A stretch of DNA of 18,841 nt from a virus. Within the stretch, counting starts at the first letter, position 1. Each line of letters starts with the position of its first letter. A program made the translations under genes and the position numbers. Below the pieces are notes generated by a model that was given only the letters and a program-made list of their open reading frames with translations, searched no databases and was not told the DNA's origin. Location of the stretch: the UHGV virus genome UHGV-1439128; one strand, given 5' to 3'. Shown here piece by piece: positions 11,039 to 18,841 of the stretch.

Positions 11039-12259
11039 TTACGCGCCGCCACCAGCAGCAGGTGCGGTAAAGGAGCCGTAGATAAACGCTTCCGGACGTT
11101 TCACAGCCAGCGCCAGGCGCTCTTCGCAACGAATCGAGATCATGTTCTTCTCGAAGTCGTCGGCGTTCTCGGTGGAGATCACAACGTTGGCATCTTCACG
11201 ATCGAACAGCTGCGCCGCGGCGTTAAACGCACCAGTCAGGAACTTGCCCTGGAATGCTGCGGCCTCAGTGGCCACAACCGGCAGGCCCCAAAGAGTAGGA
11301 CCGGTCAGCGCCGCCGGGTTCGCCAGAATGTAGCGACCCAGCGTGTCTTTGGTGAGCTCAATCTTCGCCCAGTCAATGAAGTGCAGGACGTGGCCGGAAG
11401 CCGGGAAGCGCGCCAGCTGCGCCTGAAGCATCGCGAGACGGAGATCATCAATACCGTTCTGCTGCTCAACCGTAAAGGCAGCGTCGTATGCAGAAGCCTG
11501 TGGCACGATGCCTTTCAGGTGCGCACCGGTACCGTCGCCAAAGAGAATTTCCTGCTCTTCCACATATTTCAGGCCGTAACGCATCTCGGCGTCGATAGTG
11601 GACTGCAGCTGAGCGAAATCATCCAGGATCTGCTTGGACGCTTTGAACATATGCGCGATGGTAGTCACCGGGGTGATCTGCGTGGCGAACTGGATGTCGC
11701 TGTACGGCTTAGCTGTGCCTTCAGGCACAACCTTCGCCGCATTGGTAAAGCCAGTCTGCTGCACCCAGAAGATAGCCGGTGCAGAGGTGCGGCCCGGGGC
11801 AATCAGATCCCGGATGAAGAGACGCTGCTTCGGCGCGGTATCAATACCCGGCAGGCGCTGAGGCTCAACCACACCCGTTGCCACGTCAGTGGAGATCAGC
11901 GCAGCATTCACCGGAACGCTGACGCGCTTCCCGCCTTCAACGCTTGCCGCGAACGCTTTCAGCGCTTCACTGCTGATAACGGTCTGGCCAACGGTCTCGA
12001 TAATTTTTGCAGCGCTGGCCAGCGGCATCTGCGCTACCTGCTGCTCAATTTCACCCACTGAAGATTTCAGCGACTTCAGCGCATCGTTCAGCGCATTGTG
12101 TTCGGTGGCAATTTTATCCACCGCCTCTTTCGTCTGCGCAGACAGCTGACCAGAGCTTTTAGCCTCTTTCAGCGCGTCCTCGGCCTTCTGGCTGAAGGTG
12201 CCGGAAACTTCTTCCAGCTTCGCGGAGACTTTTTTCAGTAATTCGTTAACTTCAGACAT
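11039..12259 (-). CDS. Major capsid protein, HK97 fold, with N-terminal delta (scaffold-like) domain, 406 aa
   Basis: Follows the prohead protease gene; first roughly 100 aa are a charged predicted coiled coil (MSEVNELLKKVSAKLEEVSG...KSLKSSVGEIEQQ) like the HK97 delta domain; a terminator follows the gene, as expected for the most abundant structural protein. Confidence 0.85.
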   Translation of the reverse strand: MSEVNELLKKVSAKLEEVSGTFSQKAEDALKEAKSSGQLSAQTKEAVDKIATEHNALNDALKSLKSSVGEIEQQVAQMPLASAAKIIETVGQTVISSEALKAFAASVEGGKRVSVPVNAALISTDVATGVVEPQRLPGIDTAPKQRLFIRDLIAPGRTSAPAIFWVQQTGFTNAAKVVPEGTAKPYSDIQFATQITPVTTIAHMFKASKQILDDFAQLQSTIDAEMRYGLKYVEEQEILFGDGTGAHLKGIVPQASAYDAAFTVEQQNGIDDLRLAMLQAQLARFPASGHVLHFIDWAKIELTKDTLGRYILANPAALTGPTLWGLPVVATEAAAFQGKFLTGAFNAAAQLFDREDANVVISTENADDFEKNMISIRCEERLALAVKRPEAFIYGSFTAPAAGGGA

Positions 12260-12271
12260 GGTCTTTCCTTA

Positions 12272-13117
12272 TTAGCCGAACGCCGCCAGGGCGTCTTCAA
12301 GTTGTTTGAGATTGTCAGGGTTGATTTCTTCGGTAGCGTCCGGCGTACCATCATGACTGGCAGCAGCGCCTGGCTTGCTGCCGGATAAAGCTTTAAGGAG
12401 TTTTCGACGCTCCGATCGCGGCGTATTGGTTTTGGCCAGCAGGGCATCAAGCTTGCGCAGCGCAGCTGCCGGGCTTTCGTCGTCGTCGGCAATTTCATCA
12501 GCTGAAAGAAGGCTGTCAGCAAAGCCCTTCTCCACTGCTTCACTGCCGCCGATATAGGTTTCGCCGTCCATCATCCTGTCGACGGTGGCAGCATCAAGAC
12601 CGCTGCGAGCCTGGTAGATATCGCTCATCGCTTTATCAAACGGCTCCATATCCGCGGCGATCTGCGCCAGGTCATGGCGGTTGCCCATCGCGTAGACCCA
12701 GCAGTTGTGGATCATCAGGAACGCGCCGCGGCCGATCTGCACATCGTCACCGGCCATCGCGATAACCGATGCAGCAGACGCTGCCAGGCCGAGAACCTTA
12801 ACGGTTACCCTGCCTTCGTACTCGCGCAGCAGGTTGTAAATCGCCAGGCCTTCGAACATGTCGCCGCCCGGGCTGTTTATGTTAACCGTCACGTCAGCGC
12901 CGCCAAGCGAGCGCAGTGCGCCAGCTATGCGGCTGGCTGTCACCCCCTCCCCCCAGTAATCGGCGCCGATCACGTCGAAGATAGAAATGCTGTTGTCACC
13001 GTCCCGGGCGGCGCGGATGCCTCCGTTCCAGCGCTCCATTGCCGCAGCCGGCAGATCAGGTTTTTCGCGCGCAAAAGGTCGCCCCTCCGGCGCAGCCGGA
13101 AGGCTTTTAATCGTCAT
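12272..13117 (-). CDS. Prohead (head maturation) protease, ClpP/S49-like, with acidic C-terminal extension, 281 aa
   Basis: Motifs 'INSPGGDMFEGLAIYNLL', 'GLAASAASVIAMAG' (candidate Ser) and 'FLMIHNCW' (candidate His) fit the ClpP-family serine protease pattern; located between portal and capsid genes. Confidence 0.8.
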   Translation of the reverse strand: MTIKSLPAAPEGRPFAREKPDLPAAAMERWNGGIRAARDGDNSISIFDVIGADYWGEGVTASRIAGALRSLGGADVTVNINSPGGDMFEGLAIYNLLREYEGRVTVKVLGLAASAASVIAMAGDDVQIGRGAFLMIHNCWVYAMGNRHDLAQIAADMEPFDKAMSDIYQARSGLDAATVDRMMDGETYIGGSEAVEKGFADSLLSADEIADDDESPAAALRKLDALLAKTNTPRSERRKLLKALSGSKPGAAASHDGTPDATEEINPDNLKQLEDALAAFG

Positions 13118-13125
13118 GGATTCTC

Positions 13126-14430
13126 CTAAGCCGCTTTTTTCAGCGGTGACTGTTCGAAGGGAATATCGGGGAATACGTGGTTATGGACCTGCCGCAGAGC
13201 GAATGCCTGTGCGGCCTGGCTGTTCTGCTTCAGATCATCGAGCGGCGTCAGGTTGAGCTGCACCGTGTAAATATCGCCGCCCTCAATCGGTGGCATGTTC
13301 TCCAGGCGGCGCACGTCGTTACGGGACATCCAGCCGTTCTGCAGCGCACTGGTGTAGTAAGCAGCCCGTCCAGCGCTGTCGGCGCGCAGCAGGCCCTCAA
13401 CTGAGAACTCAGCAAAGAGGTCCTCTTCGCCATTCAGCAGGCAACGGGAGATCTCCTGCTCAATGTTCACCAGCAGCGGGCGCAGCGTATGGGTCAGGAA
13501 CTGGAGGTTCATTCCCTCGAGGCTCGACGCCCAGCTGCTTTGCTTTGATGTATGCCCGACCATAAACGGCGGCACGCGGAACCAGCGGCAAATTTCCTCA
13601 ATACTGAATGAGCGACTTTCCAGCATCTGGGCATCTTCAGGGTTCATGGTGACACCCTGATATTTCAGGCCGCCCTCAAGCACCATGATTTTTCCGGCGT
13701 TTTTGGAACCGGTAAACTTCGCCATATAACCGCGAAGTCTTTCCCGCTGATCTTCGTCCAGCGCATTGTCCGATGAGAGAAACCCGGAGCTTTGCAGGCC
13801 CTGTTCAAAAATCTTTGCAGCAGATTCTTCAACCGCCATCGCGGAGCCGATTACATCCCGACCCGTCCTCATCGGCATCATGCCGCAGACACCATCGAGG
13901 CCGAACCCACGGATGTGCATCAGGTTCTTTTCGGGAATAACGCGTTTCTTGCCATCCTCGGTGTACGTGTATTCCAGCCGCCCGGTATCAAGCCGCTTCA
14001 CCACCATGTTCTGGGGCAGCAGTGGCACCAGCGACACCAGCTTATTGCCGATAAACAGCTTCTCGACAAAGGCATTTCCGCGCAGGCAGATGCTGGCCAC
14101 CACCATCAACATAAAGCGCGACGGCGTCATTTCCAGATTGGGACGGCGACAAAGCACCTGGTATACCGGATGGTTCTGCGCCAGCTTGCGCGAGCCATCA
14201 GCCTGTCGGGTGTAAATCTTAACCGGCAGCGTGGACACCGACTCGCTCAGAAGCCGGACGCAGGCCCAGACGGCCGAAAGTTGGATCGCCTTATCTGCCG
14301 TGACCACCTTGCCGCTGCTGCTCGTGCCATACCACTCCTGCCAGAACGTTCCGGTAGTCAGGCTGATGGGCACGCCCAGCCAGTTGAGCAAGGCGCTTTT
14401 TACCTTGCCCGGCTGCTTACTTTTCTTCAT
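13126..14430 (-). CDS. Portal protein (HK97-family-like), 434 aa
   Basis: Start ATG overlaps the terminase large subunit stop (TGATG); size and position between terminase and protease match a portal protein. Confidence 0.8.
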   Translation of the reverse strand: MKKSKQPGKVKSALLNWLGVPISLTTGTFWQEWYGTSSSGKVVTADKAIQLSAVWACVRLLSESVSTLPVKIYTRQADGSRKLAQNHPVYQVLCRRPNLEMTPSRFMLMVVASICLRGNAFVEKLFIGNKLVSLVPLLPQNMVVKRLDTGRLEYTYTEDGKKRVIPEKNLMHIRGFGLDGVCGMMPMRTGRDVIGSAMAVEESAAKIFEQGLQSSGFLSSDNALDEDQRERLRGYMAKFTGSKNAGKIMVLEGGLKYQGVTMNPEDAQMLESRSFSIEEICRWFRVPPFMVGHTSKQSSWASSLEGMNLQFLTHTLRPLLVNIEQEISRCLLNGEEDLFAEFSVEGLLRADSAGRAAYYTSALQNGWMSRNDVRRLENMPPIEGGDIYTVQLNLTPLDDLKQNSQAAQAFALRQVHNHVFPDIPFEQSPLKKAA

Positions 14431-16187
14431 CAGAAACCTACCATGATGGGGTTGTCAAAGAATCCACTCAGGTCCTGCTGGTCGTTGCCACCGTTAACAA
14501 GCAGACGGCTCATTGCGGTAAACAGCGCCGCCGGGCCGTCAATCTTGGCTTCCGGGGTCGATTTGTTGGGGAAGATATTGTCATTACGATCCGGCCGAAC
14601 CGTCACATTCGACATCATCCAGTTCATCACCGGGTGATTGCTGTGATGGAGCCGTCCACCGTAAACCAGCGCCTCGACTTCCTTCATGGCTTCGGAGAAG
14701 TTGCGGACCGTCTGTGGAACCTCCACCAGAGGCAGGCCTTCCTCGGCAAGCGCCAGGCTGAACTGCGTGGCACTCCACGGGTCAAAACCGATTTCTTTCA
14801 GGCTTTCACCGGCCACCCACGCCTGAAGTTCTTCCTTGATCTGCGCGTGGTCTATCACATCCCCGTCGGTCAGGATGAGCTTGTCCAGTTCCGCCCATTT
14901 GCGGTAGAGCTCGGCCATCTGCCGGGAACACTTCTCAAGCCGCCCTTCCGGCAGCCAGAATTTAAAGTCGGTGTGAACGTGCCCGTCGGGAGAACGCCAG
15001 GCTTTTACCGCGGCGCAGATATCGATTTTGTTCGCCAGATCGACCCCCACCCAGAGCGGATAGGTTTTCAGTTCATGCGCCGGCGCGATGAGTTCGCATT
15101 TTTCCCACTTCAGCATGTCCATCCAGGAAGACTCCGCCGTAACCCAGATATTCATGTGTTTGGTGAAAAAGTTAACGCGGGCGGACACCTGCTCTTTGGC
15201 CTTCTTCGCCAGGCGACGCAGATCGTCCCAGCGCTTGCAGATGCCGAGGCCCGGATTCGCCTTCTGCCAGACCGTTTCATCAAAAGGGTCGTCGCCTTCG
15301 TCCAGGGTGTAGATGATGGCAAAGAAGGTATCGTCCTTAACCGCTCCTTCCACATCGCTGTTGAAACCGCGCAGTACCTTGATGGCATAATCGCGCAGCT
15401 CATAGCAGATGCCTTCTTTATTAAAGCCGGCGGTGGTAATGCCGAACAGCAGCGACTGCAGGCGCGCACCGGTTGCTGTCTCCAGCACGTCCCAGACGTC
15501 ACGGGTTTTATGAGCGTGCAGCTCGTCGACAATGCCGCAGTGGATGTTCAGGCCGTCCAGGTTGTTCGCGTCGCTGGAAAGGGGCTCGAACTTCGACGCG
15601 CTCTGCTCCTGGTAGATCGCCAGCTTGTTGAACTCAAACAGGCGGCCCAGTGTCGCTTTCGCTTTCTTCACCATGTTCTTGGCATCTTCAAACACGATAC
15701 GCGCCTGGTCTCGTGTTGTGGCCGCCGAATAAACCTCAGCGCCGCCCTCGCCATCTGCACCAGCCATATACAGGCCGACACCAGATGAAAGTGTGGATTT
15801 GGCGTTCTTACGCGCCACCTCGTTGTAAGCGGTGCGGAACCGCCGCACCATCACCGGGCGGCCGCTGCCATCGTTGCGCAGCACCACGTCGCCAGTCTCC
15901 TCGTTCACCAGCGGGATCACAAACCCATAGATATTGATGAGAATGAAAATATGCCAGTCCATCAGGTCGATGGGCTGACCGGCCTGCGCCCCCTTAACGT
16001 GGGGTATAAATTTGTAAAAATTCAGGATGTGCTGCGCCCGGGGTTCGCTGAAGAAGATCCCACGCGCCTCGCCGTTTTTCAGATCGTCCAGAAAACGCTG
16101 GCATGCCAGCCGGACATACTCACAGGCAATAATCTCCCCCGCCACGACGCGCTCGGCGTAGCGGATACCTTCTGCAACCTTGGCCAT
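14430..16187 (-). CDS. Terminase large subunit, 585 aa
   Basis: 585-aa ORF whose start overlaps the small subunit stop (TAATG); contains a Walker B-like 'GIVDELH'; canonical position upstream of portal. Confidence 0.85.
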   Translation of the reverse strand: MAKVAEGIRYAERVVAGEIIACEYVRLACQRFLDDLKNGEARGIFFSEPRAQHILNFYKFIPHVKGAQAGQPIDLMDWHIFILINIYGFVIPLVNEETGDVVLRNDGSGRPVMVRRFRTAYNEVARKNAKSTLSSGVGLYMAGADGEGGAEVYSAATTRDQARIVFEDAKNMVKKAKATLGRLFEFNKLAIYQEQSASKFEPLSSDANNLDGLNIHCGIVDELHAHKTRDVWDVLETATGARLQSLLFGITTAGFNKEGICYELRDYAIKVLRGFNSDVEGAVKDDTFFAIIYTLDEGDDPFDETVWQKANPGLGICKRWDDLRRLAKKAKEQVSARVNFFTKHMNIWVTAESSWMDMLKWEKCELIAPAHELKTYPLWVGVDLANKIDICAAVKAWRSPDGHVHTDFKFWLPEGRLEKCSRQMAELYRKWAELDKLILTDGDVIDHAQIKEELQAWVAGESLKEIGFDPWSATQFSLALAEEGLPLVEVPQTVRNFSEAMKEVEALVYGGRLHHSNHPVMNWMMSNVTVRPDRNDNIFPNKSTPEAKIDGPAALFTAMSRLLVNGGNDQQDLSGFFDNPIMVGF

Positions 16188-16684
16188 TAATCCCTCGCTT
16201 TCATGAACTCAGCCAGCGGATCAACCGCATCCGGCGTTTTGGTGCTGACCTTTGACCGGCTGGAAGGAGTCATACCAAACTCCGCTAACATCGCGCGAAG
16301 TCGCTTCCAGGCATCAGCTTTCATCATGGCTGCCGGATGCGGCTTGATCATGCGTATTTCACGCTCTTTCCCTTCATCAGCATCATCATCGCTGTATACC
16401 GCATAGGTATAACCTTCCCGATCCAGCGTTTCACAATGATGGCGGTATTCCGTATATGCCTCTACCAGCAACTCCAGAGCCCTGGCATCCAGCTGAGATA
16501 TGACGCCAATGGCATCAAGTTCTTCGGCCATCCGCTTAAACCAGTACTTCCCCTGCTTGTCGAAATGCTTGGGAACTGGGGGGACCCCTTTAGGTGGCTG
16601 CGGCTCGTTTTTGTTGATTGGTCGTTTGGATGGGTTACCCCTCACCAAACGCAGATGGGTAGGGGTTTTCGGCGGTCCTGACAT
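16187..16684 (-). CDS. Terminase small subunit (P27-family-like), 165 aa
   Basis: Small basic N-terminus (KRPINKNEPQPPKGVPP) suggesting DNA binding; immediately upstream of and coupled to the large terminase; AGGAG 10 nt upstream of the ATG. Confidence 0.7.
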   Translation of the reverse strand: MSGPPKTPTHLRLVRGNPSKRPINKNEPQPPKGVPPVPKHFDKQGKYWFKRMAEELDAIGVISQLDARALELLVEAYTEYRHHCETLDREGYTYAVYSDDDADEGKEREIRMIKPHPAAMMKADAWKRLRAMLAEFGMTPSSRSKVSTKTPDAVDPLAEFMKARD

Positions 16685-16840
16685 AATCGAAAACTCCTAT
16701 TAATCATCGGCTGGGGGACCCCAAAAAAAGTTTTCTAACCTGCGGCGATGTGAAGAAAGGCTAGGCGGCGGTCCTTTTGGCGCCCGGTTACAGGGATTTG
16801 ACCTCCCCCTCCCCTCCACATCCGTTGATGGTAATCATTA
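16685..16840. other. Candidate packaging-initiation (cos) region between HNH endonuclease and terminase small subunit
   Basis: 156-bp non-coding gap, the only long one inside the packaging module; contains a polypyrimidine tract (16801..16818, plus strand ACCTCCCCCTCCCCTCCA), a GGGGG-A-CCCC symmetric element followed by A7 (16714..16732) and a GGCGGCGG core (16764..16775). HK97-like phages place cos between the HNH and terS genes. Confidence 0.35.
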
Positions 16841-17191
16841 TCATTTGAAGCGTTCACGCCCTGTTTTCGAGCGGTGGCAAGGCCAGCACAGGCTTTCAAG
16901 GTTCGAATCATCATCGGTACCCCCATGAGCCTTAGCCTTGATATGGTCAACGGTTGTGGCCGCGACAGCGCGTCCAGTACGCAGGCAGTTCTGACACAGA
17001 TGATTATCACGCTTCAGGATGCGCGCGCGCTTGATATCCCACTTGCCGCCGTAACCACGCTCATGGCGGCTCTTACCCTGCTGGTGCTGTTGCCAGCCCT
17101 CATTTCGATGCTGCTCACAGTAGCCTGAACGGTCCGTAGTCGTACCGGGACAACCTCTCTTGCGACATGCGCGAGGGATTAACGCTGGCAT
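16841..17191 (-). CDS. HNH endonuclease (terminase-associated), 116 aa
   Basis: Cys/His-rich with an HNH signature: CxxC...DHIKAKAHGG...N...LCWPCH; sits immediately upstream of the cos-like region and terS. Confidence 0.8.
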   Translation of the reverse strand: MPALIPRACRKRGCPGTTTDRSGYCEQHRNEGWQQHQQGKSRHERGYGGKWDIKRARILKRDNHLCQNCLRTGRAVAATTVDHIKAKAHGGTDDDSNLESLCWPCHRSKTGRERFK

Positions 17192-17412
17192 GGTTCAATC
17201 CTCACGGAACCGTAGAGCGTATGCCGCTTCACTTCATCGTTCTCTGCCGTCATATAACCACGCTCATCAGGAACGGCTGCGATTACTTCGCCCTTCTCAT
17301 CGTCAGCAGTGAAGACATGCTTAACTTCAACACCATTGAGATAAACGCTATACCGCTCTTTGCTGAGGTTTATTTTTCTTCCAGGATCATCATCTAAAAC
17401 GGTTAGTCTCAT
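17179..17412 (-). CDS. Hypothetical small protein (accessory / moron-like), 77 aa
   Basis: ATG at 17412 with AGGGGA 6 nt upstream; visibly more AT-rich than the flanking structural genes; 3' end overlaps the HNH start by 13 nt; no family recognised. Confidence 0.5.
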   Translation of the reverse strand: MRLTVLDDDPGRKINLSKERYSVYLNGVEVKHVFTADDEKGEVIAAVPDERGYMTAENDEVKRHTLYGSVRIEPCQR

Positions 17413-17508
17413 TCTTATCCCCTACTTGGTATATTGATTATCTTATTCGCTTGAAGGGATAACCATTATCAAGCCCACCCGTAGATGGGCTTTGTAATGC
17501 CTACATGG

Positions 17509-17988
17509 TTAAATGATTTGCCAGTCTTCAGCCATCAGGTCGCCAATGGATGGAACCCATGTAGCAAGGCGGTTCTGTGAGTTTTTCAATACAAGCGTGT
17601 CATTGAAAGTTGGCTCGCCAACATATTCGCCAAAGCCATAACCCAACGCAGACGCTAATTTTTCCCCTTTCACGAGATAAACAAACTGGTCTTTCCCATT
17701 CCATCCTGCCCGCTGCAAACTTTTGCCCTGTTTTAACGCTTCCATGGCAAGGCCGAAACTTAGTCCTGATACCGGACGATAAGCCTTTTCGAATACTTCT
17801 TTTGGACTCCAGCTAACGTAGCCATCAAAGCGATCGGTGTTAGGTTTTCCGCCATCCAGATATTCAACCAGATAGCCTTCGTCCTCGCCGTTTTCTCCGG
17901 CAGGAAGCTGCCAGCCACGAAAATCGTTATATGCCTGTCTCGTCATCGGAAAGGCGTTAATCAGTTTTACGCCAATATGCTGGGTCAT
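17509..17988 (-). CDS. Two-domain accessory protein; C-terminal half DUF2829-like (possible Tad2-like anti-defence sponge), 159 aa
   Basis: C-terminal half contains 'AMEALKQGKSLQRAGWNGKDQFVYLV' and ends '...GDLMAEDWQII', matching my recollection of DUF2829 signatures (ALKxGKKVxRxGWNGKG ... DLLAEDWEI); lower GC than neighbours; lies in the accessory slot between the lysis cassette and packaging genes. Confidence 0.55.
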   Translation of the reverse strand: MTQHIGVKLINAFPMTRQAYNDFRGWQLPAGENGEDEGYLVEYLDGGKPNTDRFDGYVSWSPKEVFEKAYRPVSGLSFGLAMEALKQGKSLQRAGWNGKDQFVYLVKGEKLASALGYGFGEYVGEPTFNDTLVLKNSQNRLATWVPSIGDLMAEDWQII

Positions 17989-18010
17989 AAAATTACCTAT
18001 GGAGTTGGGA

Positions 18011-18035
18011 ATAAAAAACCCCGCGAATGCGAGGC
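18011..18035 (-). terminator. Intrinsic terminator downstream of the lysis cassette
   Basis: Minus-strand RNA: GCCUCGC-AUUC-GCGGGG (stem with one or two G-U pairs) followed by UUUUUUAUU; lies between the Rz stop and the 159-aa gene. Confidence 0.5.
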
Positions 18036-18069
18036 TAAATCCTGGTGTTTGTAATGACTGGCTCTTATC

Positions 18070-18213
18070 TCAACGCAGCCCCTTACCGCGCGCCAGATGC
18101 TCAACTTCAAGCATCAGCAATGAGATGTTTAATCTGGATTCACTCCAGAAGTGATCACCACCCTGTCTACAGAGCCAGATGTGAAGGATGATGAGTAAAA
18201 TTATCGCTATCAT
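18070..18213 (-). CDS. Possible small hydrophobic ORF translationally coupled to Rz, 47 aa (speculative)
   Basis: ATG at 18213..18211 overlaps the Rz stop in an ATGA arrangement; product [47 protein letters not shown] has a hydrophobic N-terminus; ends about 35 nt before the terminator. Below the ORF-track size cut-off, with rare codons and no clear RBS. Confidence 0.25.
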
Positions 18214-18677
18214 CGAAGGCATTGCGTCCTGATGTATTCCTGAAGCGTTCTCAGTGCTGTTTGGTCGCGGATAATTCCGTCCCGGATACCGAGAACGTTT
18301 CGTCCAGCAACTGGAGAGAGTTCGACGGTGGCATCATTGCCCATGCCGGAGGCGCTGGAGGTTTCGGCTGAGGATGGCACAGGGCATTTTCCTTTGACGA
18401 GCACCCGACCACCATTATCAAGCTTGCGCCGAAGAGCATCATTTTCAGCTTTCGCATCAGCTAACTCCTTCGTGTATTTATCATCGAGTGCATCAGCATC
18501 ACGCTGGCGCTGCTGCATGTCAGTAATGGTGGCGTTCGCCTTCTCCAGTTCACTGGCCTTGTTATCGCGCTGTTCTTTGTAGGCGATTGCATTATCACGG
18601 TAATGATTAACAGCCCATGACAGGCAGACGATGATGCAGATAACCAGAGCGGAGATAATCGCGGTTACTCTGTTCAT
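18210..18677 (-). CDS. Rz: Spanin inner-membrane subunit (i-spanin), 155 aa from the ATG start
   Basis: N-terminus [31 protein letters not shown]... is nearly identical to my recollection of lambda Rz ([32 protein letters not shown]...); N-terminal TM segment plus coiled-coil region; ATG at 18677 overlaps the endolysin TGA (ATGA). The GTG at 18689 used by the ORF track is probably not the true start. Confidence 0.85.
18251..18457 (-). CDS. Rz1: Spanin outer-membrane lipoprotein subunit (o-spanin), embedded in the +1 frame of Rz, 68 aa
   Basis: Entirely within Rz in another frame; AAGGAG 7 nt upstream; lipoprotein signal with lipobox LIMVVGC followed by a Pro-rich segment ([16 protein letters not shown]), closely resembling lambda Rz1. 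Confidence 0.8.
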
Positions 18678-18841
18678 TGCTGACCCCACAAACAGATTTC
18701 ACGCTCAATCTCACGACGAGTCATGAGACCTTTCCATTGCTTACCGCCAGCATATGTCCAGCGACGTAGCTGATCACATGCGCCTTTGATATCGCCCTGG
18801 TTTATTTTGCGAAGAAGCGTCGATGTTCTGAAATTGCCAGC
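18674..18841 (-). CDS. Endolysin, GH24 phage-lysozyme type, 3' portion only (5' end outside window)
   Basis: Frame open from the window edge to TGA at 18676..18674; C-terminus ...[50 protein letters not shown] resembles T4/P22-type lysozyme C-termini; directly upstream of Rz/Rz1. Confidence 0.65.

Follow-up and report, generated by a model that had tools for sequence, protein, structure and literature searches.

A probable counter-defence protein of two modules, optional cargo at the lysis operon end of a lambdoid prophage

We analyzed the virus genome UHGV-1439128 as one stretch of 18,841 nucleotides (nt), called the window below, and all coordinates are window positions. Its minus strand carries, in this order, the lysis gene Rz, a small open reading frame (ORF) called orf50, a gene for a 159-amino-acid (aa) two-domain protein, a second small ORF (orf77), and the genes for an HNH endonuclease, the small terminase (TerS) and the large terminase (TerL). 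An earlier note had singled out the 159-aa product in this lysis-to-terminase slot as a candidate anti-defence sponge; the ORF, the motifs quoted from it and the slot are all as it described, and the coding strand is the minus strand. The start codon is ATG, with a Shine-Dalgarno-like AGG 7 nt upstream. The gene and its two domains lie as follows:

17509..17988, minus strand: complete two-domain gene (N-terminal domain and Tad2 domain), 159 aa, stop codon included, from the ORF list and translation
17767..17988, minus strand: N-terminal domain, aa 1-74, unnamed sponge-associated family, predicted beta-beta-alpha-beta-beta-alpha
17512..17766, minus strand: Tad2 (DUF2829) domain, aa 75-159, SPO1 type, with a short beta2-beta3 insertion

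The protein matches PHROG 872 over its full length (E 1.9e-69), homologues over the full length fall into more than 100 clusters, and an AlphaFold2 model of all 159 aa has a predicted local distance difference test score (pLDDT) of 89.3.

The C-terminal half, which the earlier note had attributed to DUF2829, matches PF11195, now named "Thoeris anti-defense 2-like" in Pfam, from aa 77 to 159, covering positions 2-73 of the 73-position profile (E 6.4e-22; 78.3 bits against a cut-off of 25). Of the proteins with a solved structure, Tad2 of Bacillus phage SPO1 gives the strongest sequence match (E 3e-26), followed by ModTad2, another Tad2, SptTad2 and HgmTad2/AcrIIA7. The alignment to SPO1 Tad2 is gap-free with 41 of 85 residues identical (48%, versus 43% identity to ModTad2). 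In SPO1 Tad2, the Thoeris signal 1''-3' glycocyclic ADP-ribose (gcADPR) is held by W25, N26, W73 and D79, with a water coordinated by S76; these five residues map, in this order, to W96, N97, W144, D150 and S147, all invariant or nearly so among 46 two-domain homologues. The beta2-beta3 insertion is 24 aa long (aa 107-130) and pairs with SPO1 residues 36-59 in a gap-free alignment. In HgmTad2/AcrIIA7 and SptTad2 an insertion of 35-41 aa forms a second pocket that binds cyclic dinucleotides; no such long insertion was found in the 24 aa at this place, and as the insertion is short and SPO1-like, a second pocket of that kind is not expected. Judged by these sequence features, the Tad2 assignment is secure for family, fold and pocket residues. 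Tad2 proteins sequester the Thoeris signal, most of the homologues tested experimentally inhibit Thoeris, and relatives bind cyclic dinucleotides, His-ADP-ribose (His-ADPR), cUMP/cCMP or N7-cADPR, in agreement with the role that the earlier note had given for the family. By analogy with these tested homologues, we strongly infer that the Tad2 half would sequester a Thoeris signal; sponge activity of the whole 159-aa protein would follow from the same resemblance.

The earlier note had also mentioned, and left unplaced, an extra N-terminal domain of roughly 80 aa. The domain is real, at about 74 aa, and it is the more interesting half, which that first reading overlooked. Residues 1-74 (the N-domain) have no match in Pfam, including PF13876, PF21825 and PF24729, and none in NCBIfam. 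A profile of the family found nothing among the Protein Data Bank (PDB) sequences searched, which did not include the crystal structure of gp68 discussed below, and Foldseek against viral models (BFVD) returned only members of the N-domain family. Modeled alone with AlphaFold, the segment is compact (pLDDT 95.3), with the order beta-beta-alpha-beta-beta-alpha. Across the 46 two-domain proteins, mean pairwise identity is 66.6% for the N-domain, 56.5% for the Tad2 half and 45.5% for the Tad2 insertion. K8, R17, Y20, N21, R24, W26, E32, D36, G38-Y43, D45-G47, N50, Y57 and S59-P62 are invariant or nearly so, the core motifs are K..V.A.PM, EGYLV.Y and Y.SWSP..F..Y, and about a dozen polar residues stay nearly invariant even in distant members. 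Among enterobacterial alleles the beta2-beta3 insertion of the Tad2 half is hypervariable and the N-domain nearly constant. Known anti-defence families offer no name for it: the founder sequences of LockinA/B and Acb5A/B, taken from the supplements, fail the N-domain hidden Markov model (HMM), and TadIV-1 is a two-helix structure, whereas the N-domain is beta-rich. Identity with Tad3 is unlikely, as the preprint that annotates Tad3 in hotspots of N4-like phages calls the N-domain of gp68 an unknown fold.

We searched 1.84 billion representatives exhaustively with a profile (A2) seeded with the N-domain of the window. The search yielded 2,865 N-domain clusters (at 50% identity) at E <= 0.001, 1,310 of them at E <= 1e-10. 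The partners and positions counted below are those of the best 145 representatives. The partner is Tad2 (PF11195) in 45 of the 145, Sequestin (PF21825) in 43, Acb4 (PF13876) in 15 and the Acb2/Tad1 hairpin (PF24729) in 2. The N-domain lies at the N-terminus in 117 and at the C-terminus in 9, is internal in 8, and makes up a standalone protein in 11. Triple fusions occur in several orders (N-domain + Acb4 + Sequestin; N-domain + Sequestin + Tad2; Acb4 + N-domain + Sequestin), and with further fusions to Lockin and RyR-Tad the partners comprise six sponge families, Tad2 included. A word-indexed search with the N-domain alone likewise returned standalone proteins, 73-78 aa long, along with PF21825 and PF11195 fusions.

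Part of this family already stands, unremarked, in published tables. According to the sponge survey, Sequestin is a 3'cADPR sponge that was discovered through Pfam fusions to Tad2 and Acb4, and type I Thoeris was inhibited by 10 of the 13 members tested; the survey's Sequestin table contains at least 148 occurrences of the "SWSP" motif, its Lockin table contains two N-domain + Lockin fusions (32-33 bits against our profile), and the sections of its text examined make no mention of the N-domain (bioRxiv 10.1101/2025.07.12.664507). Since it has no Pfam entry, the domain is invisible to a fusion survey based on Pfam, which would explain how it escaped discovery.

Standalone N-domain genes occupy varied settings, in a nucleotide-metabolism cluster, between terminase genes or beside a virion RNA polymerase gene, and at the loci examined no constant sponge gene neighbors them. 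In N4-like phages, the virion RNA polymerase gene adjoins a two-domain homologue (ECBP1) and, in Erwinia phage phiEaP8, a standalone N-domain gene; the polymerase gene is one boundary of an anti-signaling hotspot in these phages (bioRxiv 10.64898/2026.06.04.730250).

Some fusion partners lie outside the named sponge families. In eight representatives (P0250, P0275, P0304, P0379, P0249, P0278, P0307 and P0348) the N-domain is joined to a segment, 70-160 aa long, for which Pfam gives no significant match, that of P0275 giving sub-threshold TPR matches only; by the logic of fusion, these segments are candidates for further anti-signaling families. In another (P0341) the partner is a WDGH domain (PF25311, E 2e-43). 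In a 354-aa protein (P0312) the N-domain and the Tad2 domain are separated by an HNH_3 + AP2 segment that resembles homing endonucleases, which suggests either that a mobile endonuclease entered at the junction of the domains or that gene calling produced the fusion.

The two-domain gene travels on a segment that other prophages can lack. In E. coli FDAARGOS_1287, whose prophage is HK97-like, as is that of the window, the site is exactly empty, with position 17499 joined directly to 18057. The empty site can be read as an insertion or a deletion alike. The segment and its flanking elements are:

17500..18056, minus strand: presence/absence cassette, 557 bp, with the terminator hairpin, the ribosome-binding site, the gene and one repeat copy
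17491..17499: 9-bp direct repeat TTTGTAATG, left copy, at the junction in the empty-site alignment
18048..18056: 9-bp direct repeat TTTGTAATG, right copy, from the empty-site alignment
18007..18036, minus strand: terminator-like hairpin (18017-18036) and T-run (18007-18016), from a terminator scan; -14 kcal/mol, z -3.25
17460..17503, minus strand: strong hairpin just past the stop codon; -22.1 kcal/mol, z -4.66

The direct repeat occurs in the whole window only in these two copies, which start at 17491 and 18048. The earlier note had bracketed the gene between a terminator and a perfect 7-bp inverted repeat, as expected for an acquired moron. A terminator-like hairpin with its T-run does lie on the coding strand, but upstream of the two-domain gene and downstream of orf50 and Rz, with only 28 nt from the terminator to the ATG. 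The inverted repeat is exact (AAGCCCA at 17471-17477 pairing with TGGGCTT at 17486-17492) and forms the core of the larger 17460-17503 hairpin, which has no U-tract on the coding strand and is therefore not a canonical intrinsic terminator. As to the moron itself, presence/absence polymorphism with defined junctions and a deviant composition were found: as the note had said, the gene is AT-richer than the structural genes, with 47.5% guanine plus cytosine (GC) and 46.9% GC at third codon positions (GC3), against 57-60% GC and 66-72% GC3 in the TerL, portal, protease and capsid genes. A promoter and terminator of its own were not, and with no detectable promoter the gene is not a textbook self-contained moron.

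A search with the gene alone found it in 45 of 5,426 complete E. coli genomes. A far higher prevalence, of 2,216 E. coli genomes, had to be rejected, as those matches reflect the adjacent Rz/orf50/terminator segment and not the gene; about 2,200 genomes share only that segment, down to about position 18006. A P22-like prophage of E. coli has this lysis-plus-gene block in front of another packaging module, and homology to the window ends at about 17464, beside the hairpin. Eight E. coli genomes (hits H78 and H79) share only the half that encodes the N-domain (17737..17988), at 98% DNA identity, and carry another Tad2 allele, which points to recombination at the domain junction.

Taken together, we consider the product of this gene likely to be a phage counter-defence protein made of two modules, which a lambdoid prophage has as optional cargo where its late (lysis) operon ends. 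By homology, the Tad2 module would form a tetramer with pockets between subunits lined by W96, N97, W144, S147 and D150. These pockets would bind and sequester the ADP-ribose-derived signal of Thoeris TIR proteins, of the 3'cADPR/gcADPR class, and with the signal sequestered the Thoeris effector would never be activated. The N-domain would most likely add a second anti-immune-signaling activity by binding a different signal or a component of a signaling defence, at a site formed in the dimer by its conserved polar and aromatic residues, and it probably also pairs subunits, as its relative in RyR-Tad does. We favor such an autonomous anti-signaling function because the domain is fused to six sponge families, occurs as standalone genes, takes up free positions within fusions and conserves polar and aromatic residues. 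Going further, the 74-aa domain may found a widespread phage anti-signaling family, acting as a sponge for an immune signal that its partners do not cover or as a protector of sponge-bearing phages from defences that sense sponges; this we put forward tentatively, as possible though doubtful.

Several observations weigh against the two-module interpretation. None of the 18 Tad2 proteins tested in a large sponge screen (its Table S2) carries the N-domain; the same absence agrees with the earlier note's description of a non-canonical, extended member. No sigma-70-like promoter lies upstream of the gene on the coding strand, and early expression is thought best for sponges, whereas the gene sits in a late operon; it is probably transcribed by antiterminated late read-through. 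In the Tad2 half, four residues on the adenine side differ from SPO1 Tad2 (T65 to N136, D67 to Q138, H71 to A142 and T78 to G149), positions which in that protein make contact with the adenine side or with ordered waters, and the set N136, Q138, A142 and G149 is a minority allele set among the 46 homologues. Given these four differences, the exact ligand could be another ADP-ribose derivative. The N-domain, for its part, is acidic (isoelectric point 4.9, net charge -3), whereas the pockets of known sponges are usually positively charged. Its homologue in gp68 of Pectobacterium phage vB_PatP_CB1 (RyR-Tad), described in a June 2026 preprint as a fold of unknown function, is seen in the crystal as a domain-swapped dimer and plays a part in dimerization; the N-terminal fragment of gp68 alone showed no activity against type I Thoeris, and the C-terminal domain alone was sufficient (bioRxiv 10.64898/2026.06.04.730250). 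Because of the acidic charge and the negative gp68 result, we hold a second binding activity of the N-domain to be something short of likely.

The gp68 results are what make a pure scaffold role the main rival: the N-domain would only dimerize or stabilize, its beta-strand swapping raising the avidity, solubility or stability of the sponge; it would have no ligand itself, and in function the protein would be a plain Tad2. Six unrelated sponge families as partners would fit such a generic helper too. Yet the domain is often a standalone phage gene of 73-78 aa, with nothing there to scaffold, and the sponges to which it is joined already form oligomers by themselves (tetramers for Tad2 and Acb4, a hexamer for Lockin, a dimer for Sequestin). 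The near-invariance of its polar residues in distant members and its conservation, stronger than that of the adjacent Tad2 domain, also speak against a mere scaffold, and as gp68 belongs to a divergent short subtype and was assayed against one defence system, its negative result may not transfer. We regard the scaffold explanation as somewhat unlikely. The indifference of the N-domain to the accompanying sponge family would equally suit a need common to all sponges, which it could serve by blunting sponge-sensing systems such as Panoptes or by binding a defence protein, as Tad3-Tad8 do. Panoptes fires on sequestration of its decoy 2',3'-c-di-AMP and is triggered by Acb2, Tad1/2 and Acb4-Sequestin, protein-binding Thoeris inhibitors exist, and an acidic, aromatic-rich conserved surface could suit protein binding; we found no structural likeness of the N-domain to a known protein-binding inhibitor, however, and consider this explanation improbable.

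Other doubts concern the Tad2 half. Specificities of Tad2 homologues vary widely, and its signal might be one other than 3'cADPR: His-ADPR of type II Thoeris, N7-cADPR of type IV, or cyclic mono- or dinucleotides. The minority residue set at the adenine-side and water positions would fit this, as would an "ATW" motif shared with ModTad2, a His-ADPR binder. The domain is nevertheless closer in identity to SPO1 Tad2 than to ModTad2, its beta2-beta3 insertion is that of SPO1 in length and largely in sequence, and it lacks the long insertion that binding of cyclic dinucleotides requires, so that we think a different signal unlikely. Highly improbable, finally, is a function outside immune signaling. 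AcrIIA7 is a DUF2829 protein and one Klebsiella phage homologue is labeled "anti-CRISPR protein", but AcrIIA7 was shown to be a sponge for gcADPR and cyclic dinucleotides, and its anti-CRISPR activity was not reproduced. The location between lysis and packaging genes might hint at a role in either process, against which stand the dispensability of this cargo, absent from an otherwise similar prophage, and the unrelated genome positions of homologues in N4-like phages.

Around the cassette, the neighboring genes on the lysis side and the small ORF on the packaging side are:

18210..18689, minus strand: Rz, PF03245, from Pfam
18251..18457, minus strand: ORF nested in Rz, read as Rz1
18070..18222, minus strand: orf50, a hydrophobic ORF of 50 aa that overlaps the end of Rz
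17179..17412, minus strand: orf77, a 77-aa ORF

In E. coli, orf50 is labeled "hypothetical protein", and in about 2,200 genomes of this species it occurs together with Rz and the terminator. Toward the packaging genes, orf77 is likewise AT-rich (46.2% GC) and overlaps the start of the HNH gene by 13 nt. It matches only PHROGs of unknown function and nothing in Pfam or NCBIfam; homologues occur in only five phage records, three of the matches overlapping an annotated HNH or homing endonuclease gene. Because the prophage with the empty site has no annotated coding sequence there, the slot may hold orf77 as a second item of cargo. Past the HNH endonuclease, the packaging genes begin with a P27-type small terminase, followed by the large terminase.

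The packaging and head genes (12000..17400) have only about 78% identity to the closest known phages, and the lysis-plus-Tad2 block (17464..18300) has 99-100% identity to E. coli prophages and to Escherichia phage HZ41; the two figures therefore place a sharp mosaic boundary near 17464. The hairpin element at this boundary (17455..17499) also occurs alone and unannotated in other E. coli, such as E24377A and O26:H11 11368, and may be a conserved RNA element at the end of the lysis operon or a recombination site.

These findings bear on sponges in two ways. As far as the locus goes, they indicate that putative sponges move with enterobacterial prophages as optional cargo, 557 bp long, placed where the lysis operon ends. 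The N-domain is a useful lead, as fusion to known sponges was the signal that led to Sequestin. Should its target be a signal or a component of a defence, many phage genes that lack annotation would be explained and a new ligand could come to light, much as ModTad2 served to identify His-ADPR; should it be a dimerizing scaffold only, it would explain how phages assemble multivalent sponge arrays.

Set beside known systems, the Tad2 half is an ordinary, new member of a well-studied sponge family, and the N-domain-Tad2 architecture adds to it a widespread, uncharacterized module. SPO1 Tad2 (Gp34.65; PDB 8SME, 8SMF and 8SMG) has the same PF11195 domain, insertion length and ligand residues, and by analogy the expected shared mechanism is a tetramer sequestering gcADPR. 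The window protein differs from it by the added 74-aa N-terminal domain and at N136, Q138, A142 and G149; SPO1 is moreover a lytic Bacillus phage, whereas the gene described here is late-operon cargo of a temperate enterobacterial prophage. HgmTad2/AcrIIA7 and SptTad2 stand further off, with an insertion of 35-41 aa and a second pocket where the window protein has a SPO1-like 24 aa.

The multi-sponge fusions Acb4-Tad2, Tad2-Sequestin and Acb4-Sequestin, described by Tal et al. (2025, bioRxiv 10.1101/2025.07.12.664507), likewise combine small anti-signaling domains in one polypeptide. The N-domain is found inside such strings, for instance between Acb4 and Sequestin, and differs from its partners in not being a recognized sponge itself. 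RyR-Tad follows the same two-module plan as the window protein, a homologous N-terminal domain and then a gcADPR sponge domain. The N-terminus of gp68 is 34% identical to the window N-domain over 67 aa by BLASTP and scores 34.9 bits against the family profile, and in Foldseek the N-domain model matches an RyR-domain protein of Yersinia phage TG1 with a template modeling (TM) score of 0.76. The N-domain of gp68 is of the divergent short subtype, missing the DGGKPN loop as well as most conserved polar residues, whereas that of the window is of the long subtype, and the sponge module that follows is RyR Repeat12-like in RyR-Tad and Tad2 in the protein described here.

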